Source: an uncultured Verrucomicrobia subdivision 3 bacterium
GTDB taxonomy: Bacteria; Verrucomicrobiota; Verrucomicrobiia; Limisphaerales; UBA11358
Reading direction: 5' to 3'
Length of the DNA stretch: 64,000 nucleotides
Assembly (NCBI GenBank): GCA_903895255.1
Contig: CAITTG010000092.1
Location: forward strand, 64,306-128,305
The notes under the pieces are model-generated. The model was not told where the DNA came from and did not search any database. It saw only the letters and a list, made by a program, of their open reading frames with translations. The position numbers and the translations under genes were made by a program. Position 1 is the first letter of the stretch. Every line of letters begins with the position of its first letter. Below are positions 7,968-40,079 of the stretch, piece by piece.

Positions 7968-10900
7968 CTAATTTTTCACGGCAAACTGGTAACTGCCTGA
8001 TGCCACGGCCAGGACGGCGCAGCCACCTTCATTCCGCAGCCATTTCACTCCCGCCGCCTGCGGCAGCGGCTGGCCGCTTTCGGTGATTTGGCCAGCCGTG
8101 GTGGCGGGGCCGGCCGGCAGGTATACGGTGGCGGAGGTGTTGGCGGGGATGGTAACATCCAGAGCCAGCCCCTCCCCGGTTCGCCGCCAGGACGACTTGA
8201 TCGGTCCGCGAATGCAGTCATAGGCAGCGGCGACATTCGTGAGTCCGGGATCCAGTTGCGGCGCGATAATAATGTGCTGGTACGCCGTGCCATCGGGGCG
8301 GATGCCGCCGAGGTTTTCCAGCATCCATTGATAAACCGCGCCGAAGGAGTAGTGGGCGAAGGAATTCATGCCGGGATCCTGAAAACCCTTTTCCGGAGTC
8401 CAGCCATCCCAGCGCTCCCAAATGCTGGTGGCCCCGTGCTTGATGGAGAAGCCCCAGGAGGGAAACGTGTCATTGTGAATCAGCCGGCAGGCGACGTCGT
8501 TGCGCCCGATCTTGGCCAGTACCAGCATCAAATCCTTGGTGCCGATGAAGCCGGTGGACAAATGCCAGTCGCGCGCCTGAATGTTTTCGACCAGATGCTG
8601 CGCGGCGAGTTTCGCCCGGTCACCATCCACGAGATCAAATCCCAGCGCCAGCACATAACCGGCCTGGGTGTCGCCTTGCACGCGGCCGTCATCGGTGACA
8701 TAGGCCTGGTTGAAAGCCGCCTTGAGGCGCTCGTACAGCGCAGTGTATTTGGCCGCATCCCCGGTTTTACCCAGCACGGCCGCCGCCCGGGCCACCAAGC
8801 GGGTGGATTGCGCAAAGTAGGCAGTGCAAATGACATCTTTGGGGGTGGCCGCCTGGATGCTGAGCCAGTCGCCGAAACAATGATAATGATCGGGCGGGAG
8901 CAGGTTGGGCTTGCTGCGGTTCTGGCAGAAAGCGATAAACCGGGTCATGGCCGGATAATAGGTTTCCAAAATCCGTCGATCACCATAGACATCGTAAATC
9001 GTCCACGGGCAAATCACGCCGGAATCCGCCCAGGCGGGACCGCCATCGTCGCCGGCAATTTTCACCGGCGCCACCATGGGGAATTCCCCGTCCGCGCGCT
9101 GGCCGTCGGCGATCAAATCCACCAGCCATTTGGTGTAAAACGCCTGCACGTCACAATTCAGGGTGGCGGTGCGGACATAGACCTGCGCATCGCCCGTCCA
9201 GCCCAAACGCTCATCGCGCTGCGGACAGTCGGTGGGGATGTCGATGAAATTCGCCCGCTGGGTCCAGTAAATATTGTTGTGCAACTGGTTCAACATGGGG
9301 TCGGAACAGGCAAAACTGCCGGCGACCGGCGTGGCACTGCTCAGGGCCAGACCGACCACCGTGTCCGCCGCGGGCGGTTGGGTCAGGCCGGTGACCTCGA
9401 CATATTGAAATCCATGAAAGGTGAAATGCGGTTCCCATTCCTCCACCCCGCTGCCCGCGCACACATAGGTGTCCGTGGACCGTGCGGAGCGCAGGTTGGT
9501 GGTGTAAAGGGTGCCATCCGGATTGAGCCGCTCGGCAAAGCGCAATTGGATGCGCTGACCGGGCCGGCCCGAAATTTTGAGGCGGGCGATCCCGGCAAAG
9601 TTTTGCCCCAGATTGAGCACATAAACGCCGGGCCGGGGTTCGTTGATAGTTTTGGCCTTGAACTCCGCGAGAACCCGCACCGGCGGACCGGGATGGGCCT
9701 GCATGAGTGGATGCACCGTGGCATCGGTGACCACGGGTTGCCACGACTGGTCGGCAAAACCCGGACGGTCCCAACCGGTGGGCTCCCGGCGGGCATCAAA
9801 GGTTTCGCCCTTGAGAAAGTCGGCTTCCTGCACCGCCCCGGTGCTCGCTTTCCAGTCCGGACCGGTCCCAATGACTGCAGAGGAACCGTCGGCGTAGTCC
9901 AACTGCAATTGCATCCGCACGCGCGGCAGTTTGCCATAGTAATCGCGCTGTTTGGCATAACCGATGTAGCCGGCGTACCAGCCATCCGCCAGCACCGCGC
10001 CCAGGGCATTTTCCCCGGATCGAATTAATGAGGAGACGTCGTATGTGCGGTAATGCACCCGTTTGTCATAATCGGTCCAGCCAGGCGTGAAAAAGTCATC
10101 ACTGACGAGGTGCCCGTTAAGATGCGCCTCCACCAAGCCCAAGGCACTCACGTAAAGCGTGGCCCGCCGAACCGGCCGGCCGGCTTGAAAGGTCGTGCGC
10201 AAGTAAGGTGCCGGAGGCAAAAATGGTTCGACAGCACCGAGTATTCCCCAAGGGGCCACGCCAGGTTCCCCAATAATCCGTGGGGTTGACCAAGCATCCT
10301 CCGGCAGTGACACGCTCAGCCAGTTTGTGCCCGGGCTCCGGGCGGCGCGCCAGGAACCATCCGTCACCAGGCGAAAGGTTTGCCCATCCGCGGTGGTCAC
10401 GACCAAGGAGGCCAACAATCCGGCCGCGCCGGCATCGGCATTCTCCGCCAGCACCAAAAGATGGTTAACCCCGGGTTGCAGGGCGGTGGAGACGTCCGTT
10501 TGCTGGGGATGCCGCCAGCTTTCATTGCCGGGCGGGCTGGCTAAAACAGTTTGGTTATTGATGGCAAACTGAAAGCCGTCATCCGCCGTGGCCGTCAATT
10601 CAGCCCGCGAGATAGTAACACCGGCCGGGAGAGAGAAATCACGCGCAAACAGGCGAAAGCCCTTGGGCGGCTTGCCGCCATCCGGGGCGAACCAGAGCCA
10701 CTGCGCATGCTCAAACGGGGACACAGCCTGGCAGTTCGTGCGGGCGGCATCATAGCCAATCCATTGCGCCAGCCAGTCCGTCGGATCCAGCAAACCCATC
10801 GACCATTCCGCCGGCGTGCTCCAGACCGCCTGGTTCTGCGCATCCCAGACCCGTACCTTCCAGAAACAATGCTCCTGAGACAGGAGCGGCGAGCCGGCAT

Positions 10901-11231
10901 AAAGTGTGCCAATGGACTCATCGCTCTCCACCCGGCCGGAGTCCCACAAATCTCCCTTGTCCTGTTGCAATAATACCGGGGTGCTGGCGACCAGGATTTG
11001 ACAAGCCACCTGGCGGGCGCCCCGCTCGGCAGAAACCAGTTGCCAGGACAGTCGCGGGTGGATTTCGTCAATGCCCAGAGGGTTTACCCGATATTCGCAA
11101 CGCAAACCAACCGGGGTTAGACCGGAGGTGGTCATGCCATTCTCCGATGCCGCGCATCGATCCGTCAACCATCCGGCCAACAAACCCAAAAATAAAAGGC
11201 AAGGGCGAGCGACGTGAATGATGAATTTCAT
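7968..11231 (-). CDS. Alpha-L-rhamnosidase, GH78, with a CBM-like beta-sandwich inserted after the N-domain
   Basis: 1,087-aa ORF with a signal peptide. GH78 motifs seen: LRCEYRVNPLGIDEIHPRLSWQL, ATLYVSALGLVEAHLNGHLVSDDFFTPGWTDYDKRVHYRTYDV and DCPQRDERLGWTGDAQV. The inserted domain covers aa 175-329 (nt 10245..10709). Confidence 0.9.
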   Translation of the reverse strand: MKFIIHVARPCLLFLGLLAGWLTDRCAASENGMTTSGLTPVGLRCEYRVNPLGIDEIHPRLSWQLVSAERGARQVACQILVASTPVLLQQDKGDLWDSGRVESDESIGTLYAGSPLLSQEHCFWKVRVWDAQNQAVWSTPAEWSMGLLDPTDWLAQWIGYDAARTNCQAVSPFEHAQWLWFAPDGGKPPKGFRLFARDFSLPAGVTISRAELTATADDGFQFAINNQTVLASPPGNESWRHPQQTDVSTALQPGVNHLLVLAENADAGAAGLLASLVVTTADGQTFRLVTDGSWRAARSPGTNWLSVSLPEDAWSTPRIIGEPGVAPWGILGAVEPFLPPAPYLRTTFQAGRPVRRATLYVSALGLVEAHLNGHLVSDDFFTPGWTDYDKRVHYRTYDVSSLIRSGENALGAVLADGWYAGYIGYAKQRDYYGKLPRVRMQLQLDYADGSSAVIGTGPDWKASTGAVQEADFLKGETFDARREPTGWDRPGFADQSWQPVVTDATVHPLMQAHPGPPVRVLAEFKAKTINEPRPGVYVLNLGQNFAGIARLKISGRPGQRIQLRFAERLNPDGTLYTTNLRSARSTDTYVCAGSGVEEWEPHFTFHGFQYVEVTGLTQPPAADTVVGLALSSATPVAGSFACSDPMLNQLHNNIYWTQRANFIDIPTDCPQRDERLGWTGDAQVYVRTATLNCDVQAFYTKWLVDLIADGQRADGEFPMVAPVKIAGDDGGPAWADSGVICPWTIYDVYGDRRILETYYPAMTRFIAFCQNRSKPNLLPPDHYHCFGDWLSIQAATPKDVICTAYFAQSTRLVARAAAVLGKTGDAAKYTALYERLKAAFNQAYVTDDGRVQGDTQAGYVLALGFDLVDGDRAKLAAQHLVENIQARDWHLSTGFIGTKDLMLVLAKIGRNDVACRLIHNDTFPSWGFSIKHGATSIWERWDGWTPEKGFQDPGMNSFAHYSFGAVYQWMLENLGGIRPDGTAYQHIIIAPQLDPGLTNVAAAYDCIRGPIKSSWRRTGEGLALDVTIPANTSATVYLPAGPATTAGQITESGQPLPQAAGVKWLRNEGGCAVLAVASGSYQFAVKN

Positions 11232-11452: not shown

Positions 11453-12262
11453 CTACCATGGACCGGTGCCAACAACCACCGGGGCGTCATAGTAAGAGGC
11501 GTTGTTATCGGCATAATTAACGGCGGTTTTGGCAATAATATTGGCGGCCCCGTTGAATTTGATCCAGTCCACATGACCATCTTCATAGAGAAAATTCCCG
11601 CCCGTGGGAACACCGTTTTTTCCCGCGTGATTGGAGACCGGACCGCTATAACTAAAAGCACCGGTGAAAGAAATATCCCAGGGGTTGGCCGCACCGCTGG
11701 TCTCGATGGCATCGGCCATCACGGCGGCGAGGTGATAGGCTTGGTTTAATTTGGTCCGGGTATACCAGGGGCCATAAGCCGGGACGCTACCGTAAACGGA
11801 ATCGGCCGCCCGGGCGGGCAACCAGTGGTAGCCAATCAGGTTGGTAACACCGGCGGAGGCTTCATAATTCCGCCGCCAGGTGTCGGTGGGACAATACATG
11901 ACCACATTCTGAGCGCGCACCCCGGTGCTGCTGTTGCCGGTGATGTTTTTGTACAAATAGGAAGGGAAAAATCCGGTGTTGAAATTGCCACTGACCCATT
12001 CGGGCCCCTCGTTCTGGGCGGGCAAGGCGATGTTGTCCGGAAAGTGATCGGCAAAATCACCCGCATACATGGCCACCGCGATGCCCCACTGTTTGAGGTT
12101 GCTGGAGCATTGTGCTTGCAGCGCCCGGCTTTTGGCCTTGGCCAGGGCGGGCAGCAGCATGGCCGCCAAAATCGCAATGATGGCAATCACGACCAGCAAT
12201 TCAATCAGGGTGAAGGCGCCGGGCCGCCGGGGGTGAACCGATATTTCCAGGCAATCATTCAT
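11453..12262 (-). CDS. Prepilin-type N-terminal cleavage/methylation domain protein, DUF1559 / H-X9-DG-like pseudopilin family
   Basis: Shows [15 protein letters not shown]|[29 protein letters not shown] and a C-terminal [16 protein letters not shown]. The ORF track starts at 12322, but that ATG lies inside a 10-bp GC hairpin stem. The Met at 12262 gives a typical short prepilin leader. Confidence 0.8.
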
Positions 12263-12299
12263 ATATATTAAAGCAATTTCAGGCCAAACCTGATAAATT

Positions 12300-12358
12300 G
12301 GGGCGGGAACACCCGGTGGCATTCCCGCCCCAAACCCAGTTCAGGGCGAACCGCCCTG
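12300..12358 (-). terminator. Two consecutive GC-rich hairpins downstream of the 12365..15994 gene (possible terminator or attenuator, no clean U-tract)
   Basis: On the minus strand: CAGGGCG-gtt-CGCCCTG (12342..12358), then GGGGCGGGAA-N12-TTCCCGCCCC (12300..12331) followed by AATTTAT. Confidence 0.3.
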
Positions 12359-12364
12359 GTCGAC

Positions 12365-15300
12365 TCAGGGATAAACCATCCGGTAAAATTCCGCCGGATT
12401 GGTGGTGACGATGGTAATGGTGATCGAATTGGTGGTGGTCGAGCCTGGCACGGTCGCCCAGTTAGTGCTCAAGCCGGTTGCCAGAGTGTTGGTTTGCACC
12501 TGCAACCGCCAGCCGGTGTGATCCGCCGGCCAGCTCAGGGTCAAGGCGCTGCCGTGGACTGAGGTGGTGATGTTCGTTGGATTCGCATTCACGGTCGAAC
12601 CCACGACGATGCGCAACGTACCGTCGGTGGTGAGCGTGTTGGTGTTCCAAGCCAGGCCGGCTCCGGGAGTGGCCGGACTAATGGCGGCGAAACTACCCGC
12701 ATAGGACGTCGCTGAAAAGAGCGGGAAGGCGTCGCTGGTCGTCAGAGTGCCGCCGGCATTGGTGATCACCAGGGTGCCACCGTAGGTCAGAGTGCCAATA
12801 CCCGTGATGGTTGCATTCGTAGCCGCCGATTTGCTGATCTCCATGGCGGTCGTAGCGCCGGCGGACAAGGTGAGATTGGCGTTCACAGTGAGGGTGCCCA
12901 AGCCATCTCCGGGTTTGAGCGTGCCGCCGGCGGCGACAGTGACCGCGCCAGCGATGCCACCGGAACCGCCGAGTGTGCCGCCAGCGGCCACGGTGACATT
13001 CCCGGTCCCGCCAATTTGCCCCTCCACCAGCAGCGTGCCGCCGCTGACGGTAGTGGTGCCGGAATAGGTGTTCTGGCCACCCAACGTCCAAACCCCGGGG
13101 TCACGTTTCAACACGTTCAACGCCGTGCCGCCCGAGGCATCGGTGAGGATCCCGTTCCACAAGCCCACTCCCGCACCTTGCAGGTTCAGATCAACGGGGG
13201 CATAAGAAGTAACGTTGACCAAGGAGCTGGAAGCATCAATCGTCAACTGCCCCCGGGTGGCTTCCACGTTCAATTCGGTGCCGTTGACCCCGGCCGCCGA
13301 TCCGGTGGTGAAGGTTAATCCAGCGGTAATGTCATTCGTGCCACTAAAATTGGCAATGTGGGGGGCGGTGGCAGCCAGCCCGGTGTTGAACCGGGTGTCC
13401 AGTCGCAGCGGTTGCGTCCAGACGATATTGTTCGAGAGATACAAACCGCCAAAGTTGTCACCCCGGCCAATGGCGGTGGAACCATTGACGGGATCGCCCA
13501 ACGCCGCCGGGTTGTCAACAATGACGTCGGACCAAACAATCTGGTTTTGACCGGTATGGCTGCTGACCCCCGTGAGGACAGTGGTTTGAAAACCAGTGAA
13601 GTCGTACAAGCCGGTGCCCGAGACGGCATTGGGGATCACCAGCACACTCGCCGCACTGGCCGGAACCAGCACGCCGTTGTTGAGAATGGGTCCGGGATTG
13701 GGGGTGCTGGCGATGGACAGCGTCCCGTTATTGATGGCTTGAATGGTATAGGCGCTGTTGGTCGCGGACAGTACCGTGGTGCCCGTGCCATCCTGAATAA
13801 CGGTGCCCGAACCCACCAAAGTGGCGGCGATGGGCAGCAAACCGGCATCAGCGAAATCCAAGGTGCCGTTGTTGGTGATGAAACTGGCTTGTAGAAAGCC
13901 GTCGGTGCCATTGTAGCCGATTTGCAAATAGGTGTTGGTGGTCGCCGAGCCAGGCAGGGCGGTGATCGTAACACTGGAATACTGTTCGTTGGTGACCGCC
14001 AGATATAAGGAACCCGTGCCATCGCCAGTTACGAGGAGGCTCTGGCCACTGATGCTGTCACCAGTCATGATGTACCCATCGCCATTGAGGGCGTTGACGG
14101 TCACGGAGTTGGGATTGACGAGATTGGTGACATTGACGGTGTTGCCCCCGACATTATAACCCAAGCTGTCAAAGGTCACATTATTACCAGTGGCAAAATC
14201 GGCCTGTGAAACCCCGCCGTTCGTGGTCCAATTGGCCGTGACTGTATCCCAAGTGGTATAATCCACCTCGGGATACCAGGTGAGGTTGTTGGGAATAAGA
14301 ACGGAGACCCGGGACACGGTGCTGGTGACGACGTTGGCACTGTTGAGCTGGTTGCTGACCACCACGGTAAACTGGTCGCCATTATCCGCCAGCGTGGCGG
14401 GCGGCGAGGTGTAATTCTGATTGGTGGCGTTCAGAATGGCCACGCCGTTCTTGCGCCATTGAAAAGCCGGGGACCAGCCTTCCACCGTCACGCCCACAGA
14501 GATGGGCGCGCCCACTGCCACCACCTGGCTGGTGGGGGATGGGCCGCCAAAAATCGAGACGGGAGACTGGGGATTTTGATACACAAACGAGGAGGAACCG
14601 CTCGAACCGAAGGTGAGCGGGAGATTATTGCCCGTAAAGGTCAGGTTGGTGCCCGCCACCGCCGGGAGGAAGTTGCCGGTGAGGTTTTGATCGATCTCCA
14701 CGAGCCAGCCCATGTTGGTGGTGCTGCCAGTCGCGGAGGGATAGAGTTGAATGCGCACCCGGTTGGTGGCGGCGGAGCTGGGGGTGGGATTGCTGACGGT
14801 GGCGCCATTGATGAACAACTGGCTGGGGTTGGCCCCCGAGCCCAGGCGGGTGAGGACGCCCAACTTGGCGTTGACCACCCCGCCATAACCAGCGCCGCCG
14901 ATATTAATGGCGGTCCAAGCATCGGATGATTGGGAACCATTCGGAGTGACGATACCATCAAAAACCACCATGTCCCCCGCCAAAAGTGCATTACCGCTGA
15001 TGGCGACGCCGGGGTCGGTCACCGCGCCTTCACCGGCGGCCACCGTGGTGGTGGGGAAATTAAAAGTGAGGATGCCCGGAGTGGAGCGGACCGTGAGCAC
15101 CGAGACCGAGCTGGTCACGACATTACCAGCGGTGAGGAGGTTGGTAACGACCACGCTATATTGCGCGCCATTAAAAGAGGCGGTGGTTGGCGGGGTGGTG
15201 TAGGTAAGATTGGTGGCTCCCAGAATCGGAACGCCATTGGAACGCCATTGTTGGGCGGTTTGAATGGGATAGCCCTGGGTAATGGTGGCCGACACGGTTG

Positions 15301-15994
15301 CGGTAAGTCCCGCCGCCACGAGATTGGTGGCCGGGGAGGCGGCGGATACAGCAATGATCGGCTGGGTTTGGATGAACAAGTGAGCGGCATTATTCGCGCC
15401 AAACTGCAAGGGAATGGTATTGCCAGCAAACGTTAATCCAGTGCCATTGAGCGATGCATTATAGGTTCCAGTGGCACCCTGGTCGATTTCCACCAAATAG
15501 GTCATGTTCGTGGTGGAGCCAGTCAACGTGCAATCCAGCTCAATATGGACGCGGTTGGTCCGGGAATCCAGCGCGGCGGAACCAAACTGGGTGGAGGTCC
15601 CATTAACAAAGAGCTGCCATTTATTGCCGCTGGTGGTGCCCGTTTCGGCCAGCACCCCCAAAGTGGCGGAGGTCAGTCCCAAATAGCCGCCCGCATGCAG
15701 TTCCACCGCGCCCCAGGCATCACTCGTAGAGCCGGGCACGTTGATGACGATGCCATCAAAAACCACGACGTCCCCGATGTTCAAATTGCTGCCATTGATG
15801 GCGGTGGCGCCATTGGCCGGATTTACGGGACCACTGCCCGCGGCGGCGGTGGTGTTGTTAAAGCTAAAGGTGTTCGTCGCCGCCTGAGCGCTTAGCGACA
15901 CGATGGCCAGCCCAAGGCTAGCGAGCAGTCCGACCCGGGATGTGCGGATTACAGTTTGGATGATTCTGAACATAGGATTGTTGGTTTGGTGCAT
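12365..15994 (-). CDS. Large secreted surface protein with a tandem duplicated (unknown beta-sandwich + Ig-like) module, autotransporter-associated beta-strand (PATR) repeats and a C-terminal FYR-tail domain
   Basis: The ORF track start at 16006 is TTG. ATG options are 15994 (MHQTNN..) and 15973 (MFRIIQTVIRTSRVGLLASLGLAIVSLSAQA, a classical signal peptide). PATR-type segments include GTLTLGGQNTYSGTTTVSGGTLLV. The C-terminus is ...LSWPADHTGWRLQVQTNTLATGLSTNWATVPGSTTTNSITITIVTTNPAEFYRMVYP. Confidence 0.75.
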   Translation of the reverse strand: MHQTNNPMFRIIQTVIRTSRVGLLASLGLAIVSLSAQAATNTFSFNNTTAAAGSGPVNPANGATAINGSNLNIGDVVVFDGIVINVPGSTSDAWGAVELHAGGYLGLTSATLGVLAETGTTSGNKWQLFVNGTSTQFGSAALDSRTNRVHIELDCTLTGSTTNMTYLVEIDQGATGTYNASLNGTGLTFAGNTIPLQFGANNAAHLFIQTQPIIAVSAASPATNLVAAGLTATVSATITQGYPIQTAQQWRSNGVPILGATNLTYTTPPTTASFNGAQYSVVVTNLLTAGNVVTSSVSVLTVRSTPGILTFNFPTTTVAAGEGAVTDPGVAISGNALLAGDMVVFDGIVTPNGSQSSDAWTAINIGGAGYGGVVNAKLGVLTRLGSGANPSQLFINGATVSNPTPSSAATNRVRIQLYPSATGSTTNMGWLVEIDQNLTGNFLPAVAGTNLTFTGNNLPLTFGSSGSSSFVYQNPQSPVSIFGGPSPTSQVVAVGAPISVGVTVEGWSPAFQWRKNGVAILNATNQNYTSPPATLADNGDQFTVVVSNQLNSANVVTSTVSRVSVLIPNNLTWYPEVDYTTWDTVTANWTTNGGVSQADFATGNNVTFDSLGYNVGGNTVNVTNLVNPNSVTVNALNGDGYIMTGDSISGQSLLVTGDGTGSLYLAVTNEQYSSVTITALPGSATTNTYLQIGYNGTDGFLQASFITNNGTLDFADAGLLPIAATLVGSGTVIQDGTGTTVLSATNSAYTIQAINNGTLSIASTPNPGPILNNGVLVPASAASVLVIPNAVSGTGLYDFTGFQTTVLTGVSSHTGQNQIVWSDVIVDNPAALGDPVNGSTAIGRGDNFGGLYLSNNIVWTQPLRLDTRFNTGLAATAPHIANFSGTNDITAGLTFTTGSAAGVNGTELNVEATRGQLTIDASSSLVNVTSYAPVDLNLQGAGVGLWNGILTDASGGTALNVLKRDPGVWTLGGQNTYSGTTTVSGGTLLVEGQIGGTGNVTVAAGGTLGGSGGIAGAVTVAAGGTLKPGDGLGTLTVNANLTLSAGATTAMEISKSAATNATITGIGTLTYGGTLVITNAGGTLTTSDAFPLFSATSYAGSFAAISPATPGAGLAWNTNTLTTDGTLRIVVGSTVNANPTNITTSVHGSALTLSWPADHTGWRLQVQTNTLATGLSTNWATVPGSTTTNSITITIVTTNPAEFYRMVYP
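14297..15877 (-). repeat. Intragenic tandem duplication of a ~265-aa unit (aa 44-306 and 311-570)
   Basis: The two units align, for example NIGDVVVFDGIVINVPGSTSDAWGAVELHAGGY...TNRVHIELDCTLTGSTTNMTYLVEIDQ with LAGDMVVFDGIVTPNGSQSSDAWTAINIGGAGY...TNRVRIQLYPSATGSTTNMGWLVEIDQ. Each unit ends in an Ig-like segment (QWRSNGVPILGATN / QWRKNGVAILNATN). Confidence 0.75.
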
Positions 15995-16061
15995 GGCAGC
16001 CCGCAACGTTAATTAAAACGACTTTAGGCTATGGCAACACTGTCACTGAGATTACGGGCGG

Positions 16062-16111
16062 CGTAAATACCCTTTAAAAGTAGCCCTTACATCCCCGAAA
16101 CAGGGGATGGT
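16062..16111 (-). promoter_or_regulatory. Conserved intergenic motif, copy A: CGTAAAT-N11-GTAGCCC-N3-CATCCCC-gaaaca-GGGGATG-GT (plus-strand reading)
   Basis: 7-bp perfect hairpin or inverted repeat at 16090..16109. The motif is near-identical to copy B at 19564..19613 with identical spacing. It lies 56-117 nt upstream of the candidate starts of the 12365..15994 gene and downstream of the response regulator stop. Confidence 0.55.
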
Positions 16112-16279
16112 AAAGGCGACAGGTGGGGAAACTAAGGCAACAAGGCCGGGCACCATCCAGGTCGAGAATACCATGGCCCGAGCCGTTGGCCTTGGCAACG
16201 GAATCGGGCAGCAACTTGGGCCGCCAGCCCCGGCTGGTTGGAGGGCGGCCGAAAGCCAGCAAACCAACCGGCCATGGGC

Positions 16280-16975
16280 TTACACTGCCGGCGGAATAGT
16301 TTTGGAAGCCATGTAGCGGACCACTGCCTCGGTACGGGAACTGACATGCAGTTTTTCGAAGACATGTTTCAAGTGATGACAAACGGTATCCACGCTGATT
16401 TCCAACCGGTCAGCGATGATTTTATTGGCATAGCCCTTGGAAAGCAGCAGCAAAATCTGTTCCTCCCGCACGGATAAATGGAGCGACTCGTCGCGGGTCC
16501 GGGCCTTCAGGCGGAAGGATTCCACCACGCGCCGGGCAATTTCGCTGGTCATGGGGGCGCCGCCGTTGAGCACATCGAGCAAGGCGGCCCGCAAGTCGGC
16601 CGGCTTGGTGCGTTTCAACAAATAACCATCCGCCCCGGCCTCCAGGGCCATGAAAACCAGTTCCTCATCATTCATGGCAGTCAGAATGATGATCCGTAAT
16701 TTGGGCATCAGGACTTTCAGGCGCGAGACGCATTCGATGCCCGACATGCGCGGCAGGAAAATATCCATCAGCACCACATCGGGCTGGACTTCAGGGATGA
16801 CCCGGATGGCCTCCTCGCCGGTTTTGCAGGTGCAGATGCAGGCGAGATCCGGGAGGGAGTTGATGAGCTGGCTCCAGTCCTCCCGCACCTTGGGCTGGTC
16901 CTCCACGAGGGCGATTTTGAGGGGAGCCAGCGCGGGGGTTTTGACGGGAGCAGGGGCTTTGGTTGGTTTGGTCAT
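16280..16975 (-). CDS. Response regulator, NarL/FixJ family (REC + LuxR-type HTH)
   Basis: REC domain: KIALVEDQP...DVVLMDIFLPRMSGIE...IIILTA. HTH: LSVREEQILLLLSKGYANKIIADRLEISVDTVCHHLKHVFEKLHV. The start lies 1 nt after the kinase stop. Confidence 0.9.
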   Translation of the reverse strand: MTKPTKAPAPVKTPALAPLKIALVEDQPKVREDWSQLINSLPDLACICTCKTGEEAIRVIPEVQPDVVLMDIFLPRMSGIECVSRLKVLMPKLRIIILTAMNDEELVFMALEAGADGYLLKRTKPADLRAALLDVLNGGAPMTSEIARRVVESFRLKARTRDESLHLSVREEQILLLLSKGYANKIIADRLEISVDTVCHHLKHVFEKLHVSSRTEAVVRYMASKTIPPAV

Positions 16976-16976
16976 A

Positions 16977-18557
16977 TTAATGATGGATCGTTTGCGGTGG
17001 CCGGGCGGGAGCCGGCGGGCGGGGCCGGCCCAAGCTCCAGCGGGACCACCAGGAGCGCCGGCGCATTTGGATGACGGGAATGTGAAATTCCACCCGGCAA
17101 CCCTGGCCGGGCTGGCTGGTTACCCGGCAGGTACCGCCCACCTCGGTGAGCCGCTGCGCCATGTTATCCAAGCCATTGCGTTCGCCACGGGTTTGGGTCG
17201 GGTCAAAGCCGCGGCCATTATCCTGCACGGCCACCATCAGACCGAGACCCTGGCGGCGAATCTGGAGCAGCAATTCGGTGGCCCCGGAATGTTTGGCGGC
17301 ATTGTTGATGGCTTCTTTCACCGCCAGCAGCAGGCTGCGCCGAAAGGGCAGATCAAAGGCCACAGCGGACATCGCCGGCTCCACATCCAGGAGACATTGA
17401 ATAGAGGTGGATTTCAAAAAATTTTTGGCATGGCCGCAAACAAAGGTGGCAAACTCGTGCAGGTTGTCCCGCCGGGGATTGATCGCCCAGAGGATTTCAT
17501 CCATCGCCTGCAAGGCCTCGCGCGCATCCTCGGAAATGCGCTCCAACTGCCCGTGCGTGCGGGAACCCACGCGCTGTTCCGTCTGGGCGACCTCGCCCTG
17601 CAAGACCAGTTGGGTGACGCGGGTGCCGAGGTCATCATGAATATCACGAGCGATGCGGGCCCGCTCGCGCTGGAGGAGATCCTGCTCTTTTTGATGGAGC
17701 AAGACCTGGGTGGCGAGGCTGAAGCTGACCAGGCAGACCCCGCCGAAAATTACCAGCAGGAGAATTTCAAACCAGGTTTTCTGCCAAAAGGGGACGATGA
17801 TGGCCTCCAGGGGAGGCACCAGGTCAATATATTCCTGGTTAACCCCCCAGGGTCCTTCCCCGAACTTGGCCATAAAAGTGGCCGGCCGCCAGGAGTCATC
17901 CGGTTCGACGCGTTTTTCCCAACCGACAAGATCGTTAGGCACGATCAGCCAGTTGGTGTCGGATTGGATGGTGATGGCCTGGCCATTCCCCAAGCCCACC
18001 CGCATGCCCAGCACAAAACCGGCCTCACGTGAACTGTTATAGGCCTCCACCGCCAGCACATGGCGGCCCGGGGCCAGCAACGCCGTGATGTCATATTCAT
18101 ACAAGTGACGCCATTCCGCATCCCGCCCCAGTTCGCGGCCATCGAGGTAAAGAATATATTCATTGTCTGCCGTAATGCGCAGGCGCGAGCGCAGCACGGC
18201 GGAACCCTCCGGAATTTCAAAAGATTTCCAGAACCGCACAGTTTGCCGGTCAAACGTGTTGGTGTCCCAAATCCACGGCCCCATGTCGCTGAAGTTGTAC
18301 GAACCCCGTTCCCCCAGCGAATCCTTGGCTGCCTCCGCCGGATCATCCACCGCCGCACCATTCGTGAGACTGGACGGCGAGTTCGTGAGGCTTGGGAGCG
18401 GGCCGGTGGCATCCGTGATGGCCCCCCAAACTGAACCGGGCAGCAGGAGCGCAATTAACAAACCCATAACCAGCCCCACGAAGGAGGGCGGGACACGGAC
18501 CCGCCGGTCGGGCCACCATGGGCACGTGTTCGGCCTCGTCTGCAGCACACCTAGCAT
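16977..18557 (-). CDS. Sensor histidine kinase (HisKA_3 + HATPase_c) with a periplasmic CBM-like beta-sandwich sensor domain
   Basis: H-box RERARIARDIHDDLGTRVTQL, N-box EAINNAAKHSGA, G-boxes DNGRGFD and GLDNMAQRL..GG. Two TM segments (FVGLVMGLLIALLLPG and WFEILLLVIFGGVCLVSFSL) flank aa 100-247 (nt 17844..18287), which align to the GH78 inserts. The ORF track start at 18584 is GTG. The ATG at 18557 is preferred and 18467 is also possible. Confidence 0.85.
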   Translation of the reverse strand: MLGVLQTRPNTCPWWPDRRVRVPPSFVGLVMGLLIALLLPGSVWGAITDATGPLPSLTNSPSSLTNGAAVDDPAEAAKDSLGERGSYNFSDMGPWIWDTNTFDRQTVRFWKSFEIPEGSAVLRSRLRITADNEYILYLDGRELGRDAEWRHLYEYDITALLAPGRHVLAVEAYNSSREAGFVLGMRVGLGNGQAITIQSDTNWLIVPNDLVGWEKRVEPDDSWRPATFMAKFGEGPWGVNQEYIDLVPPLEAIIVPFWQKTWFEILLLVIFGGVCLVSFSLATQVLLHQKEQDLLQRERARIARDIHDDLGTRVTQLVLQGEVAQTEQRVGSRTHGQLERISEDAREALQAMDEILWAINPRRDNLHEFATFVCGHAKNFLKSTSIQCLLDVEPAMSAVAFDLPFRRSLLLAVKEAINNAAKHSGATELLLQIRRQGLGLMVAVQDNGRGFDPTQTRGERNGLDNMAQRLTEVGGTCRVTSQPGQGCRVEFHIPVIQMRRRSWWSRWSLGRPRPPAPARPPQTIHH

Positions 18558-18624
18558 CGGCTCCAAATTTAAGCTGATTCGCACGCGGTCTCAAGCGACA
18601 AGCAACCGGACGGACTCACGGCGG

Positions 18625-18657
18625 CAATAAAAAAAGGCCCGGACACGAGGTCCGGGC
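18625..18657 (-). terminator. Rho-independent terminator of the PEP-CTERM lectin gene
   Basis: Minus strand reads GGCCCGGAC-ctcgt-GTCCGGGCC followed by TTTTTTTATT, 26 nt after the stop codon. Confidence 0.85.
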
Positions 18658-18682
18658 CGGTGAAGTGAAAGGGCGACATCTA

Positions 18683-19474
18683 TCAGGCTTGGACGCGACG
18701 AATGCGGCGGAAGGCCAGCAAGGCGCCGCAACCGCCAGCCAGCAGCGCCCAAGTGGTGGGTTCGGGCACCGGGGTCACATATGAGGCGGTGAAAGCCGCC
18801 TCCACCGAACTGATTTGCGTCGGAGTCAGCACGCCAGTGTAAATGTCAATTTCAGCGACATCGCCAGCAAAACCGTCACCGCCGCCTTCATTGTTCCCAA
18901 TGCGGGTTATGGGTGAGGCAAACGTCGCGCCGGCGACCGTCCCGTCCGAGGAGCCATTAAGTTTAAACGAGGCGCCCGAAGAATTAACAGCGAGATCAAT
19001 CAAACTGAAACTAGTCGTGGGAATGACCGCATTACCATGACCAACATCGGCCGTATACTCGGTCAAATAATCCTGGTGGGTGTTATAAATGTCATATTCC
19101 AAAGCGTTCTTGGTGGAACCGCCGGTGAGGGCGTTGCGGGGGATGCCAGTGGTGGGCTGAACAAATGCAAACACCGTGTAGCCGGCGGTATAATCAATGG
19201 AGGAGGCGAGGAGCAGGGAGCCACCTGAGCCCGAGGCCGGCTGGGTCAAGCTCAGCGCCGCCGAACCGTTCGGCGTGGCACCGGCCGCCACGGTGGGCGC
19301 ATAAAGCGCGGGACCGGAATAGGTGGCGTTGTCACTGTTCCCGCTGGTATCAGTCCACACGCCCGTGGTGGGATTGAAATTGGAGGCTTTTAATTGCACG
19401 GCCAGTGTTTGCGCGCTAGCGGAAAGGCCGCCAGCGAGCGCGCAAACAGCGATTGCGACAGGAAGTTGCTTCAT
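18683..19474 (-). CDS. PEP-CTERM-anchored LamG/concanavalin-like lectin-fold protein
   Basis: Signal peptide MKQLPVAIAVCALAGGLSASAQ. C-terminal PEP-CTERM sorting signal VPEPTTWALLAGGCGALLAFRRIRR (nt 18686..18769). Confidence 0.85.
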   Translation of the reverse strand: MKQLPVAIAVCALAGGLSASAQTLAVQLKASNFNPTTGVWTDTSGNSDNATYSGPALYAPTVAAGATPNGSAALSLTQPASGSGGSLLLASSIDYTAGYTVFAFVQPTTGIPRNALTGGSTKNALEYDIYNTHQDYLTEYTADVGHGNAVIPTTSFSLIDLAVNSSGASFKLNGSSDGTVAGATFASPITRIGNNEGGGDGFAGDVAEIDIYTGVLTPTQISSVEAAFTASYVTPVPEPTTWALLAGGCGALLAFRRIRRVQA

Positions 19475-19563
19475 AATTTTTGGTTGCTGGCGCGTTTTGG
19501 CGCCCGATTGGTTTATTTTTATATTACTGGAGACGGAGATAGTGTGATTAAAATCTCAAACTC

Positions 19564-19613
19564 CGTAAATCGCCGGATAATGTAGCCCCGGCATCCCCGA
19601 AATAGGGGATGGT
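19564..19613 (-). promoter_or_regulatory. Conserved intergenic motif, copy B: CGTAAAT-N11-GTAGCCC-N3-CATCCCC-gaaata-GGGGATG-GT
   Basis: 7-bp perfect hairpin or inverted repeat at 19592..19611. It lies 90-139 nt upstream of the PEP-CTERM gene ATG (19474) and ends 6 nt from the GH78b stop codon. Confidence 0.55.
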
Positions 19614-19618
19614 CCGAA

Positions 19619-22600
19619 TCAAGGATAAATGAGCCGGTAAAAGACGCTGCCACCGGCCAGGGTTATTGGGGAAACATATTGATTGGTCAGATTGGTTCCC
19701 GGCAGGGTAAGCCAATTGGTACCAAGTCCCTGATTCAACGGATTGGTCTGCATCTGGAGGCTCCAGCCCGCATGGTCAGGGGGCCAGCTCATTTGAATCT
19801 CGCCGTTCACCACCGCGCAGCCGAGTTTGGGCGGCACCAAGGAGGGAGCCAGGGCGAGTTGCACATTGTCGAGGAACACGGTGTTATCGCCGCCGTTGGC
19901 ATCAGTGCCCATAAACGCCAGCGTTTGGGTGCCGGCGACCGCAGTAAAGGTGGCGGCATAAGTGGCATAGCTCTGGGCTGATTGCGGCGGGGCGTAGGCG
20001 CCGATGGTGGCGCCGCCCACCTGTAATTTCCACGTCTGGCCGGTCTGCGCCCCGTAAATATTATTGCGCTGGGCGGCGGCAAAGGTGAGCTTGTAATTCG
20101 CCCCGGCAAGCAACCCTGTCAGCGTTTGGGAAATGGCGCCGGTGCCCTGCAAAAACGCCACTTGCAGTCCTTGCGGTGCGGTGGTATTGCCAATGGTGAA
20201 CGCACTGCCGTTGGCGCTAATCCCCGAACCGCTCGTCCCGGACAGGGCGCTGAAAGTCCAGGAACCGCCGGCGGGAGCATAGGCATAGGTGCTGAGGCTC
20301 GGAGTTTCGAAGCCAAAATTCGGAATGGCCGCGGATGCCGGACTCATGGGCGTGGCGCTGACCTCGGTCGAATTGGCGCTCTCGTTGGTTCCCGCCAGGT
20401 CGGAAACCACATAATAATAGGGCAGGTTGTTGGTCAGGCCGGCATCCGTGTAATTGGTGCCGCTCACCGTGCCGGCAATGGCGTAACCGCTGCCAGGAGT
20501 CAGGGAGCGTTTGACGTGGTATCCAGAAGCATTCGTCACGGCATTCCAGCTCAGGGTCACCTGACTGTTCCCGGCCGCGGCGGCCAGTCCGGTGGGGGCG
20601 GGAAACACGTTCCAGGCAAATTGGTAAACGCCGGAGGCCACGGTCCAAACAAGACATGTCTGTGGGCCCGCACCTGACACTTGGGCAAAGGTTACACCCG
20701 GGGAATTGCTGTTCGGCGTGCCTTGCTGCCACAAGTTCACCCCACTCTCGCTCACCAGCAGGTTGGTGGTCAGGCTGCCAAGGATGGGCAGATAAATGGA
20801 ACCCGTCGCGCCGATCGGAATGGTGACTTTCAAGGTGGCTTGATTATTCGTCAATGTCCACGCGCTGGCAATCAGCCCGCGCCCGGAATTATAGCTGGCC
20901 GTGACCCAGGCCAGCCCGCCGACCAAAGCGGGTTTGATAATCACATGCTGGAAACCCGGCAGCGCCGGGTCCCATTGGATGCCCGCCAAGTCATGATAAA
21001 ACCATTCCGTAATGTGACCGAGCATGAAGTGATCCTGAGAATCACTCGGGTTGGCATCCCAGGCCTCCGTCAGGGCCGTGGCTCGCTGGCTGAGGATGTA
21101 ACCGTAACCTGGATCGTTGGTCCCACTGTGCAACTTGTAAACGACGTCGGGACGGCCCAGGTCGGTGAGCGCGCGCAGGAGGTAGCGGTGGCCAATTTCA
21201 CCGGCGGTGAGGCCTTTGGTATTGAGGTTCGCAATGAGTTCCGTGGTTACCGATGCCACATTGGTGGGATTGACGATGCCAAGGTACAAGGGCATCGCCT
21301 GAGATGTTTGGGACCCGGTGGAATAATAGCCGTTGGCGGCGGAGTAATAGGTGGTGTTGAAGGCCGCGCCGATGTTGGTGGCGAGCAGTGCGAACCTCGC
21401 CGCGTCAGTGACATAGCCCTGCTCGGCGGCGACCCGGGCCAGAATTTGCGCGTCCTGGCAATAATAAGCATCGGCGGTCAGGGAGACGGGGGTGTTTTGC
21501 GGGTAGCCCGGAGCATTGGGTCCAATATCATACCAGTCCCCCAGACCATTCGGATAATTCAGGAAATTATTAACGGCCTGATTCTGGAGGTAGCCGAAAT
21601 AGTTGGTCATCACGCCGTAATACGTGTGCAGCAACGTGTCATCCCCCGTAAACAGATAATGCTGCCAGGGGACGAGAATCACCGAGCTGCCCCATTCGGG
21701 CGAGTCCCGGTAACCGCCGCTGAAGACAGTGAATTCGGGGGCAATGCTGGGCACCAGGCCGGTGCCGGCCGAGGTCTGGCTGTCGGCCATGTCCTGCACG
21801 GCCTTGGCAAACAGCAAGCCCAGGTCAAACTCATATTGAAGGGATGGGCCGTTCAGGTTGTCCTGTTCCAGCCAGCCCAGCCGCTCGCGGTGCGGGCAGT
21901 CGGTAAGGATGCTGATCAAATTGTTACGCTGCGCCCAGCGGATAAGGTTGCGGGTGTTGTTGAAGAGGGTGCTGGAGCAGGCGAAATTACCCACGTTGGT
22001 GGCGGCACTCTGAATCACCGTGGCAGTGAGGGCATCAATGGCGGGGAGTTGGGTGGAGCCCGGCGCGGGACTTAAGGAAACTTGAAGATAACGGCAACCG
22101 TGGTAGAAAAAGCGGGGAGTCCAGGTTTCCTCGCCCGTGCCCGCCAGCGTGTACTGCCACCAGGCGGTGCCGCCCCCGGCGGAGGCGCGGTTGACCGTGC
22201 CGTCCGAATTGATCAGTTCCGCGGGGGTGATTTGCACCTGGGAGCCGGCCGGGCCATGGGTGGTGAGGGTGGGAATAAGGGCGGCATTCTGGCCCAGATC
22301 ATAGACAACAGTGCTGGTGGAGAGGGTGTTGGTTTGGATGGGCACCAGTGTTTGGGTGGCGATAATGGGCGGGGCCGCGTGGGATTGGCCGCGCAGAACG
22401 CCACCCGGACCGGTGGTGACCACCGGAACCGACCAGCCGGCGAGGTTGAATCCCGCCTGATTCCAGCCAGCGGCCAGCAATCGCGCATCATACGCTTCGC
22501 CGCCATAGACATGGGAGTAGGTGATGGGACCGGCGGTCGTCTGCCAGGTGGTGTCACTCGGGATGATCTGGGTGGTGCCATTGGTATAGTAAAGCTGAAT

Positions 22601-23872: not shown

Positions 23873-24057
23873 AAAAATTAAGTGCGCGACAGCCAAAGCA
23901 CGCGATTTTCCGCCCGTTTATTTCCCGACCAGGATCCCACGGGCATGGCCCACCATTGGCACAAACACGGGTCGCGCGATGAAATAAAAATGACGCCACT
24001 TTTGATTCAAGATTAATAATACTTCAGCGAAGCGGGCGACACCACACCCCTAAAGAT

Positions 24058-32113: not shown

Positions 32114-32122
32114 CAAAACAAT

Positions 32123-34186: not shown

Positions 34187-34193
34187 CGTTTGA

Positions 34194-35138
34194 TTAAATG
34201 GCGGCGTTGGCGGGCACGACCTTGGGGGCCAGTTGCTGGTGGGGAGCCGGATGACTGGCCAGCCGTTCCGCAAATTGCCGCGGCAACGGCGGCGTGGCAC
34301 CGGCGCTGGCGCAGACAAAGCGGGCCACTTCATCCGCGAAGCAATTGATCTCGTCCAGCGGCATTCTGCGCAGCAACCCCAGTACCAGTGCCGCGGTAAA
34401 CGAATCACCCGCTCCGACGGTGTCCACTACTTTGATCGGCACCGAGGGACAATCCGACCACTGCCCGTTTTGATAGAGCAAACTGCCCGCCGGACCCCGC
34501 GTGAGGGCCACCACATCCAGTTCAAACCGACCGGCCAGCGCCTGGATCATTTCGCGGGTGCTGCCCGTCAGGCCGAATTGCTCCGCCAGCACCGGCAGTT
34601 CCCCGTCATTCAATTTGAGCACATTGGCCAGTCGCAGGGATTGCTCGATGATTTCCGGCGTGAAATACTTCTGGCGCAAGTTAATATCGAAAATCCGCAG
34701 AGTGCCCACGGGTGCGGTGGCCACCAGTTGTTGAATCGACGCCCGGGCGAGCTCGCTGCGCTGGGCCAGGCTGCCGAAGCAAACGGCATCCGCCTCGTTA
34801 ATGGCGGTTTTGGCGGCAGACGTCACCTCCAACCGGTCCCAGGCGGCGTTTTCATGAATGATATACTGGGGTATCCCCGCTTCGGAAAGGGTGACCGTGA
34901 CCATGCCCGTCGCGGCCGTCGGGTCCACCTGGACCGTGCCGCACCCAATCCCCTGCCCCTCCAGACGTTTAAAAATATCATCCCCAAACCCATCGTTGCC
35001 CACGCGTGTCACGACGCAGGCCTGAGCCCCCAGCGCATGGGCGTGGCAGGCAAAATTCGCCGGCGCCCCGCCCAGTTTCATTCCCGAGGGCAGCAAGTCC
35101 CACAGCACCTCGCCAATCCCGACAATTTTAAATTTCAT
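34194..35138 (-). CDS. PfkB-family carbohydrate kinase (fructokinase-type)
   Basis: Shows MKFKIVGIGEVLWDLLPSGMKLGGAPANFACHA..., C-terminal DTVGAGDSFTAAL and the anion-hole GAGD. The ATG at 35138 is preferred. The ORF track extension to 35453 overlaps the transporter gene. Confidence 0.85.
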   Translation of the reverse strand: MKFKIVGIGEVLWDLLPSGMKLGGAPANFACHAHALGAQACVVTRVGNDGFGDDIFKRLEGQGIGCGTVQVDPTAATGMVTVTLSEAGIPQYIIHENAAWDRLEVTSAAKTAINEADAVCFGSLAQRSELARASIQQLVATAPVGTLRIFDINLRQKYFTPEIIEQSLRLANVLKLNDGELPVLAEQFGLTGSTREMIQALAGRFELDVVALTRGPAGSLLYQNGQWSDCPSVPIKVVDTVGAGDSFTAALVLGLLRRMPLDEINCFADEVARFVCASAGATPPLPRQFAERLASHPAPHQQLAPKVVPANAAI

Positions 35139-36676: not shown

Positions 36677-37504
<828 letters not shown>

Positions 37505-39884: not shown

Positions 39885-40079
39885 GTTTATGGTTTGCTGT
39901 TTGGTTGTGTTGCGGTCAATTTCCCCGCAACTGGCCGGTCCTGAACCACGGGTTGCCCGGCCGAAACACTCGTTCACGCCGGTCCCGCAGAGCTGCCATC
40001 GGGCTCAAAATCGCGCCGATGAAAACCGGTTGGTGCAGTCGCTGGGTACATCATTAGTTATAGCCAATTGTTAAAAACC

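Follow-up and report, generated by a model that had tools for sequence, protein, structure and literature searches.

Background

The T9SS CTD of Bacteroidota is a small beta-sandwich of seven strands that forms the very C-terminus of functionally unrelated enzymes and adhesins exported by Sec. No T9SS is known from Verrucomicrobiota. Type I dockerins, which are Ca-binding helical pairs of EF-hands, are docking modules of ~70 aa that do not depend on the cargo, stand mostly at the C-terminus of many CAZymes per organism and are more conserved than the catalytic parts. PEP-CTERM/exosortase signals fill the same architectural slot with a short membrane-spanning signal. Two pilus-related arrangements are also close. 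The pairs formed by large pilus-tip proteins such as PilY1 and the minor pilins, or by T2SS cargo and pseudopilus, have a large exported protein encoded beside a type-IV-pilin-like gene, and in chaperone-usher pilins an Ig fold without its G strand is completed by donor-strand complementation. T2SS substrates are in general not known to have a recognisable targeting signal. The way in which giant adhesin-like proteins and polysaccharide-degrading enzymes cross the outer membrane, or are retained on the surface, is poorly understood in Verrucomicrobia and other PVC bacteria.

A C-terminal module in six large genes

The window, that is, the whole stretch of 64 kb of DNA analysed here, contains six large genes that end in an alignable module of about 75 residues placed directly ahead of the stop codon, all of them on the minus strand and all found where the preliminary description had located them. 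Its division into two subtypes could also be reproduced. Subtype 1 is formed by tail A (12368..12589, WPADHTGW ... FYRMVYP-stop), tail B (19622..19846, WPPDHAGW ... FYRLIYP-stop) and tail F (55927..56157, WPANHTGW ... FYQLIYP-stop). Subtype 2 contains tail C (24242..24463, GIPGSNYVLQTTTNL..W ... FYRVFQP-stop) and tail E (42696..42920, GAPGSSYYLLTTTNL ... FYRLEVP-stop). Independent profiles, built solely from tails of other genomes, recovered the window tails of subtype 1 at E 1e-33 to 1e-42 (A at 1e-42, F at 2e-35 and B at 3e-33) and those of subtype 2 at 1e-20 to 1e-24 (C and E, respectively). Judged by these scores, the likeness among the tails is far above chance. By hhalign the two subtypes align to each other (E 1.9e-6, 89.7% probability), and forms in between are present; on this profile evidence both are real and homologous. 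The sixth tail, D (37617..37850), ends in FYKIKH-stop and is divergent and subtype-2-like. It had already been described as the weaker member (37614..37811), and the searches agree, as a jackhmmer run seeded with tail D settles on subtype 2 and its hhalign probability is 55.6% (E 1.2e-4), making it a probable member and the weakest of the six. A six-frame scan of the window gave no further copy and no internal copy.

No annotated family could be named for the module from the letters alone, and none appeared when the six tails were scanned against Pfam and NCBIfam at E<=10, which returned nothing relevant. The only matches of the tails, to pacearchaeosortase and blaGIL at E about 0.1, were dismissed as noise. 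A PDB sequence-profile search with the tail gave nothing significant either (best E 0.025). The six tail sequences have no PEP motif, no hydrophobic anchor or transmembrane helix, no basic tail and no match to TIGR02595, unlike the product of the neighbouring gene at 18683..19474, which matches TIGR02595 and is a true PEP-CTERM protein, as had been supposed.

Carrier proteins

Cargo identities of the six carriers were taken from Pfam. Carrier A (12365..16006, 1213 aa) is a PATR/Ig protein whose DNA is about 85% identical to a locus of a Verrucomicrobia subdivision 3 MAG (L002). Carrier B (19619..23896, 1425 aa) is a GH78 alpha-L-rhamnosidase with a C-terminal extension, and carrier C (24239..32116, 2625 aa) combines GH32 with Ig, CHB_HEX_C, PA14 and Big_7 domains. 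Carrier D (37614..39977, an ORF of 787 aa) has two LamG domains, while carriers E and F (55924..63486, 2520 aa) are giants with nine and five PATR repeats, respectively. The listed ORF of carrier E extends to 52604, but its signal peptide, MKRIAFIPFAGLLLMASPLALRA followed by Q at the cleavage point, starts at M141, so that the true gene is probably 42693..52184 instead of 42693..52604. All six are read from the minus strand. With a GH78, a GH32, a protein with two LamG domains and three PATR proteins, the carriers are indeed functionally unrelated, and their genes amount to 35.2 kb or 55% of the window, in line with the earlier estimate of more than half.

Sec signal peptides were judged by eye to be present in all six window carriers. 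Among the full-length carriers of related loci they were called in 77 of 80, with a crude and permissive detector that was also positive for 59% of control ORFs; this is too permissive, and what we say about export is based on the six window proteins read by eye. The cargo types seen with the tail are GH78, GH32, GH28, GH29, GH2, a PL4-like lyase, LamG, Ig and PATR, and 57 cargo clusters were counted among the tail carriers of the first locus set. The carrier genes are often in tandem, with 2-4 per locus. In the subtype-2 locus set a single cargo family accounts for 76 of about 117 carriers. The window itself has GH78 and GH32 paralogues in short forms without the tail and long forms with it, and its LamG proteins end either in PEP-CTERM (18683..19474) or in the tail (gene D).

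Family size, C-terminal placement and lineage

A profile search with the tail recovered 4,651 protein clusters (at 50% identity). Among the best 150 of the 4,651 cluster representatives, the module ended no more than 5 aa from the C-terminus in 147. Similar figures were obtained in 1.2 Mb of genome loci (106 of 108 copies), in 0.94 Mb of metagenome loci (129 of 130) and among subtype-2 database matches (117 of 120). The fixed terminal position, independent of the cargo, that had been noticed in the window is therefore found in all the data sets tried. Internal copies were also sought, and every intact copy examined was C-terminal, all the non-terminal cases being genuine FN3 arrays, frameshifts, read-through or remnants of decayed copies. 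Among them, the internal copies in P0121 and P0122 were rejected as family members, as they are canonical PF00041 arrays in which many weak matches were summed, and the non-terminal matches in L019, L068 and L092, together with an N-terminal copy in P0124, were attributed to frameshifts, read-through, remnants or fusion. The tandem-module proteins P0125 and P0141 do contain internal copies, with a repeat period of ~75 aa versus the ~95 aa of canonical FN3, which suggests that a free C-terminus is not required for folding.

The WPxxHxGW subtype was found in Verrucomicrobia subdivision 3 / Limisphaerales only. The tail is part of a large, lineage-restricted domain family for which neither Pfam nor NCBIfam has a model.

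Predicted fold and relation to FN3

The AF2 models of tails A and E (pLDDT 90.6 and 88.9) are both sandwiches of six strands, the last of them formed by FYRL. In the hhalign comparison with FN3 (PF00041) the tail aligned with 84% probability (E 7e-6) over 63 columns, covering the 96 positions of FN3 from 3 to 70-73, and then the protein ends. The profile alignment puts FYRL..P on the F strand of FN3 and, because the chain finishes there, the tail looks like an FN3 domain without its G strand. From this alignment and the strand count, the G strand appears to be absent. The core residues that the two have in common are LSW (strand B), GW/GY (strand C) and FYR(L/V) (strand F). Foldseek against PDB gave FN3 domains as best neighbours, with probabilities of 0.93-0.98 but E values of about 0.02; they included Tencon and fibronectin (both at probability 0.97) and the DCC FN3 (TM 0.57). 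For both models, only generic FN3/Ig sandwiches, at E>=0.007, were among the top 50 neighbours listed. The PF00041 HMM did not match the tails (Pfam, E<=10), although the same library did detect the canonical FN3 arrays of P0121 and P0122.

The possibility that the module was a plain Fn3 domain had been raised in the preliminary description as an argument against a sorting role, and it was half right. By profile and predicted fold the tail is a remote relative of FN3. It is not plain FN3, because its chain stops with strand F, its occurrence is restricted by lineage and its place is strictly at the end of the protein. It has about 75 aa versus about 90-95 aa, and six predicted strands versus the seven of FN3 (A-B-C-C'-E-F-G), apparently with neither F-G loop nor G strand. 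In addition, it has an invariant WPxDHxGW in the predicted B-C loop.

Conservation of the tail

Tails carried by unrelated cargo are 58% identical. Where the cargo could be aligned, the cargo was 37% identical and the tail 62%, the rest of the cargo being unalignable. The persistence of 58% tail identity over unrelated cargo and many species, against 37% in alignable cargo, indicates that selection acts on the tail itself. The invariant residues are located in the loop WPxDHxGW and not just in the core, and many of the conserved positions are occupied by aromatic residues and His (W36, H40, W43, W60, F84 and Y85).

Adjacent type-IV-pilin-like genes

Two genes of the window code for type-IV-pilin-like proteins, and both are found directly behind tail genes on the minus strand. 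One of them (11453..12322), a DUF1559-like protein with a prepilin N_methyl segment and the candidate partner of subtype 1, starts 42 nt downstream of the gene A stop, and the other (36677..37504) is located about 110 nt downstream of gene D. Both match PF07963 (N_methyl) at E 1e-9 to 3e-8 and TIGR02532 above its cutoff, and both have the prepilin cleavage/methylation motif (G|FTLIELLVV...E5) followed by a hydrophobic helix. DUF1559 (PF07596) was matched weakly. No equivalog-level match to GspG/H/I, PilA or ComG was obtained for either gene, since these matches cover the N-terminal helix only and are far under the curated cutoffs. The DUF1559/H-X9-DG-like pilin family is greatly expanded in PVC bacteria, and the window pilin is presumably part of this expansion.

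The same arrangement was found in other loci. A prepilin-type gene was present at no more than 600 nt downstream of 31 of 90 tail genes versus 7 of 379 other ORFs (Fisher p 2e-18), and in the loci set 45 of the 52 prepilin-type genes stood directly beside a tail gene on the same strand, where 14.9 would be expected. The pairing extends across 18 cargo clusters, and in subtype 1 it persists while the cargo body changes. When the comparison was reversed and seeded with the pilin, an intact tail gene was directly upstream in six of eight contexts and a remnant in one more. A subtype-1 (WPxxHxGW) tail gene is usually paired with a neighbouring type-IV-pilin-like gene, and this is a new finding; in the literature on DUF1559, H-X9-DG, Limisphaerales secretion and PVC pseudopilins we found no description of either the tail or the pairing. 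About half of the subtype-1 genes are without an adjacent pilin gene, and part of the adjacency is the conserved synteny of one cassette. Pilin adjacency was also considered for the whole superfamily and rejected: in an independent subtype-2 set it was found for only 7 of 110 genes, and 9 of 18 pilin genes were adjacent versus 6.8 expected. As it is missing in subtype 2, the pairing cannot explain the superfamily as a whole.

Possible role of the tail

We propose that the tail is a cargo-independent C-terminal docking or localisation domain, a reading to which we give about an even chance. Its constant position at the C-terminus and, for one subtype, the usual pairing with a pilin-like gene make it a good candidate for a localisation or docking tag. 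In Verrucomicrobia subdivision 3 (Limisphaerales/Pedosphaera) the FN3-derived tail of six predicted strands has come to stand at the very end of many exported proteins with Sec signals and unrelated functions, CAZymes as well as adhesin-like giants. In the proposed scheme, once the protein has been exported by Sec, the folded tail would bind a shared partner in the envelope, in particular through the side where the invariant B-C loop (WPxDHxGW) and the adjacent free C-terminus meet, and this partner would either take the protein across the outer membrane or retain it at the surface of the cell. In the case of the WPxxHxGW subtype, the pilin-like protein encoded beside the cargo gene would probably be involved as this partner or in its pathway. 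Against docking count the generic Ig/FN3 sandwich fold, FN3 modules in CAZymes being often mere spacers or weak binding domains, and the internal copies of the tandem-module proteins, and the 64-kb window contained no candidate secretion or sorting machinery. The preliminary description had suggested that the module may be a secretion, sorting or surface tag; the terminal position, the independence from the cargo, the Sec signals, a tail more conserved than its cargo and the tailed and tail-less forms of the same enzyme families in the window all favour this part of the claim, whereas the likeness to T9SS survives only as an analogy.

The tail might also be a divergent T9SS-type CTD, or the signal of one of the other known routes of C-terminal sorting (PEP-CTERM/exosortase, T1SS or T5SS), and it does share the logic of the T9SS CTD, a ~75-aa beta-sandwich that ends diverse Sec-exported cargo. 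We consider this highly improbable and reject the identity with the T9SS CTD. PF18962 (Por_Secre_tail), TIGR04183, TIGR04131 and the PEP-CTERM models were unmatched at E<=10, while PF18962 did detect the own CTD of P0122, used as positive control for the library. Among the 50 best PDB neighbours that Foldseek listed for either model, none was a CTD structure, the tail has six predicted strands and not seven, and it belongs to another phylum. Furthermore, no T9SS machinery gene (Sov/SprA, PorV, PorU, GldKLMN) was seen among the genes of the window and of the annotated loci. The PEP-CTERM signal shares the slot, as the two LamG proteins of the window illustrate, but the tail is predicted to be a folded domain and is devoid of the transmembrane helix and basic tail of that signal. 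T1SS substrates differ from the carriers in that the latter have Sec signal peptides, and the carriers have no beta-barrel of autotransporter size. As for the docking systems, dockerins have an unrelated fold, and no cohesin-like scaffold was identified in the data covered. PilY1 ends in a propeller to which the tail is unrelated. The chaperone-usher pilins resemble the tail in being an Ig-like sandwich that apparently lacks the last strand, but no sequence relationship, chaperone/usher genes or donor strand were found for the tail, which ends large enzymes and not a fibre subunit.

Two other readings were considered, and both seem to us unlikely, to a similar degree. The tail might be a carbohydrate-binding module, a CBM-like FN3 sandwich that directs its carriers, enzymes as well as adhesins, to one shared glycan, which would be a substrate or a polysaccharide of the cell's own surface. 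The carriers are mostly CAZymes within glycan-degradation loci, the conserved aromatic and His positions would suit such a function, CBM-type sandwiches are among the distant fold neighbours, and there is a sub-threshold resemblance to a discoidin/CBM32-type domain (E 0.04, not significant). However, CBMs are found at either end of proteins as well as inside them, and the tail is last in every intact protein examined; one near-invariant module accompanies enzymes for substrates as unrelated as rhamnosides, fructans, pectin and fucosides; it is also present on PATR and LamG proteins without a catalytic domain; and no Pfam CBM family was matched by the tails. If the ligand were a glycan of the own envelope, this reading would merge with anchoring. 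Alternatively, the tail could be a passive FN3-like end-cap or spacer that has no specific partner and has spread within one lineage as domains were shuffled and genes duplicated. The remote FN3 relationship, the lineage restriction with tandem genes, which fit recent shuffling, and the single cargo family that dominates the subtype-2 locus set go in this direction. Against a spacer stand the excess of tail over cargo identity, the invariant residues in the loop, the pilin pairing that subtype 1 keeps while the cargo body changes, and the lack of a reason for a spacer to form the last residues of a protein.

Within the docking proposal, a more specific and doubtful version can be formulated for the WPxxHxGW tail. 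It might be the docking element of an undescribed system of cargo-pilin pairing, in which the FN3 tail without G strand would couple each Sec-exported enzyme or adhesin to a dedicated, adjacent pilin-like protein, possibly with a strand of the partner filling the G position. From there the cargo would either be driven across the outer membrane or exposed on the fibre of a pseudopilus or pilus.

Implications

An abundant family (4,651 clusters), strictly C-terminal and absent from Pfam and NCBIfam, provides a handle on the question of protein export and surface display in PVC bacteria. The tail predicts which proteins of Limisphaerales have a common fate and is a portable tag for reporter fusions, and the gene pairing nominates a specific family of pilin-like partners. 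If the cargo-pilin version were true, a T2SS/T4P-like machine would have a targeting signal in the form of a domain, the tail, and part of the DUF1559/H-X9-DG-like pilin family would acquire a function. Even if the tail were a mere binding module, a model of this family would help to annotate thousands of C-termini now called "hypothetical" in metagenomes from soil, peat and lakes.

Tailed genes in the window

Genes A to F all lie on the minus strand and end in an alignable module followed directly by the stop codon, as described from the raw sequence, and together they take up 55% of the window, in line with the earlier estimate of more than half. The carriers had been called functionally unrelated, and their domain content bears this out. 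Gene A (12365..16006, -) codes for a PATR/Ig protein, gene B (19619..23896, -) for a GH78 protein, gene C (24239..32116, -) for a GH32 protein with Ig, CHB_HEX_C, PA14 and Big_7 domains and gene D (37614..39977, -) for a protein with two LamG domains, while genes E (42693..52604, -) and F (55924..63486, -) have nine and five PATR repeats, respectively. A Sec-type signal peptide is present at the N-terminus of all six. In gene E, a canonical signal peptide (MKRIAFIPFAGLLLMASPLALRA, followed by Q) begins only 140 codons into the longest ORF, and the real start is probably M141, at 52184. A profile of the six tails, run in all frames, detected neither a seventh copy nor an internal copy in the window.

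Immediately downstream of the giant gene E, a DUF4432 protein (E 5e-104) is encoded at 41290..42516 (-). Elsewhere, a single 1455-aa ORF at 3588..7955 (+) has a Y-family polymerase (IMS, IMS_C) joined to a DnaE2-type Pol III alpha (PHP, DNA_pol3_alpha, finger, HHH_6). The two parts look like an imuB-like and a dnaE2 gene fused together; such genes are usually separate.

A widespread family with two subtypes

The two subtypes seen initially are real. Subtype 1 (WPxxHxGW..QTN; tails A, B and F) and subtype 2 (GxxGxxYxLxSTNL..W; tails C and E) are bridged by intermediate sequences and match in a profile-profile comparison (89.7% probability, E 1.9e-6), in an alignment that reaches the common FYRL..P end. 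With profiles made solely from the tails found in other genomes, the E-values are 1e-33 to 1e-42 for A, F and B and 1e-20 to 1e-24 for E and C, so the similarity among tails is not due to chance. The divergent tail of D, used alone as jackhmmer start, converged on subtype 2 (hhalign 55.6%, E 1.2e-4) and by its sequence is a probable member of the family.

No annotated family could be named in the preliminary description, and indeed neither Pfam-A nor NCBIfam gave a match to any of the six tails even at E<=10; a sequence-profile search of the PDB gave nothing significant. HMMER, run exhaustively over 1.84 billion cluster representatives, returned 4,651 proteins at E<=1e-3 (1,474 at E<=1e-10), and 451 confirmed copies were found by scanning one genome per GTDB species with two narrow subtype-1 peptide patterns. 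The tail belongs to a genuine and abundant family of domains that neither Pfam nor NCBIfam models. The best 79 loci of the scan came almost all from Verrucomicrobiota subdivision 3, Limisphaerales or Pedosphaera MAGs, and one of them is ~85% identical to the window DNA over gene A and the two-component genes beside it. Typical subtype-1 loci were also found in MAGs labelled Bifidobacteriaceae (L018 and L030, CAYUGC01), Acidiferrales (L003, L010 and L026, DATHQS01) and Acidoferrum (L040), likely through mis-binning or mislabelling.

The fixed terminal position noticed in the window held well beyond it. Counting as terminal any module that ends no more than 5 aa from the C-terminus, this was the case in 147 of the best 150 representatives of the profile search, 106/108 copies in related genome loci (1.23 Mb), 117/120 subtype-2 database matches and 129 of 130 copies in independent metagenome loci (0.94 Mb). 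Every exception was inspected individually. The database proteins P0121 and P0122 were rejected as members with internal copies, being canonical PF00041 FN3 arrays in which many weak matches sum up (P0122 ends in a T9SS Por_Secre_tail). The other rejected cases were a frameshift (L068), a read-through into junk sequence (L092), a decayed remnant (L019) and a fragment of a frameshifted protein like that of gene C (P0354). P0125 (511 aa) and P0141 (533 aa) are small exported proteins made up of 5-6 tandem true modules with a period of ~75 aa, the last copy being terminal; they may, for instance, form a scaffold or fibre. The module can therefore be internal when repeated, and only in such tandem arrays did the intact proteins examined have internal copies of the true module. 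With all exceptions explained and the arrays ending terminally, the tail is the last element of every intact protein examined.

A truncated FN3-like fold

AlphaFold2 models from deep alignments (pLDDT 90.6 for the subtype-1 tail and 88.9 for subtype 2) both have six beta strands in identical order, the last one being the FYRL motif. Foldseek gave only weak PDB matches for either model. For subtype 1 the leading ones were FN3 domains (Tencon, fibronectin; E ~0.02, probability up to 0.98, TM 0.40-0.49), and for subtype 2 generic Ig/FN3-like sandwiches, such as the FN3 of DCC at TM 0.57. No T9SS CTD was among the best 50 PDB matches listed for either model. The subtype-1 profile matched complete FN3 repeats (84% probability, E 7e-6), with module positions 4-72 aligned to FN3 positions 3-70 of 96, so that the terminal FYRL..P corresponds to the FN3 F strand with its Y-x-Y-R-V tyrosine-corner motif. 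The tailed proteins stop at the point where FN3 goes on to the F-G loop and the G strand. The period of the tandem modules, ~75 aa versus ~95 aa in canonical FN3 arrays, agrees with an end at the F strand. From the alignment and the strand count we conclude that the tail is a putative FN3-derived sandwich without G strand, a remote and truncated relative of FN3. The invariant WPxDHxGW motif is the B-C loop of the tail, and by FN3 topology strand F should end at the same pole. The B-C loop and the free C-terminus may form a composite surface, which would account for the obligatory terminal position.

Association with pilin-like genes

Two pilin-like genes with a prepilin-type N-terminal methylation motif follow tail genes in the window, one (11453..12322, -) 42 nt after gene A and the other (36677..37504, -) ~110 nt after gene D. 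Both products have weak DUF1559 similarity and resemble GspG/H, PilA and ComG in the N-terminal part only. Among the subtype-1 loci, a prepilin-type gene was found <=600 nt downstream of 31 of 90 tail genes versus 7 of 379 other ORFs (Fisher p 2e-18), and of none of 63 large tail-less ORFs. Conversely, 45/52 prepilin-type genes directly adjoined a tail gene on the same strand (~15 by random placement). The downstream pairing covers 18 cargo clusters, other clusters have the pilin upstream, and about half of the subtype-1 genes are paired.

A reciprocal test was seeded on pilin homologues alone. Six of its eight contexts had an intact tail-ended gene with its stop 16-140 nt upstream of the pilin, one had a decayed tail remnant and one was negative or truncated. 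The upstream protein body varies (Ig-type, PATR, LamG); tail and pilin persist. Many of these contexts (L157-L169, Limisphaerales metagenome contigs) are one conserved cassette, also matching the window at 11453..23896 (-), with the order GH78 with tail, small LamG protein (with PEP-CTERM in the window), HisKA_3 kinase, GerE-type regulator, large tailed protein and pilin. Short decayed or orphan tail remnants adjoin pilin-like genes in L019 (5667..6011), L166 (8969..9130) and L167 (5420..5581); they possibly remain from cargo genes that were lost. An independent subtype-2 set had no pilin enrichment (7/110 genes adjacent; 9 of 18 pilin genes versus 6.8 expected), hence the link is a feature of subtype 1 (and of D in the window) and not of the whole superfamily. 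Neither the tail nor the cargo-pilin pairing is described in the literature searched.

Residues 109-248 of the window's HisKA_3 kinase (16977..18584, -), in its predicted extracytoplasmic part, match the alpha-L-rhamnosidase model NF041573 (E 6e-15). The gene lies between two GH78 genes, and the N-terminal domain of the enzyme may thus have given rise to a domain that senses rhamnosides.

Possible role of the tail

The first locus set contained 57 cargo clusters, and the carriers include GH78, GH32, GH28, GH29, GH2, PL4-like lyase, LamG, Ig and PATR proteins. Between unrelated cargo proteins, the subtype-1 tails share 58% identity, and in alignable cargo pairs the figures are 37% for the cargo and 62% for the tail; as read from these identities, the tail is under a constraint of its own. 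In the window, GH78 and GH32 occur both as short tail-less genes (7968..11231 and 32123..34408) and as their long tailed paralogues B and C, and LamG is combined with a PEP-CTERM signal at 18683..19474 and with the tail in gene D, a pattern that resembles a periplasmic/surface split. Without being a PEP-CTERM signal, the tail is thus found where a recognised sorting signal would stand.

Cargo diversity, tail constraint and slot equivalence favour a partner-binding role in localisation or docking, and speak against a passive FN3 cap disseminated by domain shuffling, which we consider improbable. They also make a substrate-specific CBM unlikely, but are compatible with a module that binds a common glycan, for example the cell's own envelope polysaccharide; such a module seems to us just as doubtful as the passive cap. 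The tail works like T9SS CTDs and dockerins in architecture but fails the membership tests of both, and we regard a diverged form of the T9SS signal, or the signal of another known sorting system, as very improbable. The observations of the preliminary description were thus confirmed, and its interpretation as a sorting or attachment tag stands in part: strict terminal position, cargo independence, own constraint and the sorting-signal slot support it, and the T9SS CTD match was not found.

The function that we infer as most likely, with middling confidence, is docking or localisation through a C-terminal domain that is independent of the cargo. The tailed protein would be exported by Sec, and the tail would then bind a shared envelope partner, through which the protein would cross the outer membrane or stay on the surface. 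In subtype 1, the obvious candidate for this partner, or for a component of the pathway, would be the neighbouring pilin-like protein, and coupling of the cargo to a pseudopilus or pilus via the G-less FN3 tail is a tentative proposal, of rather low probability. What is new is a putative FN3-derived terminal tag, in a family whose position is unusually strict and whose genomic partner, the pilin-like genes, was unexpected.
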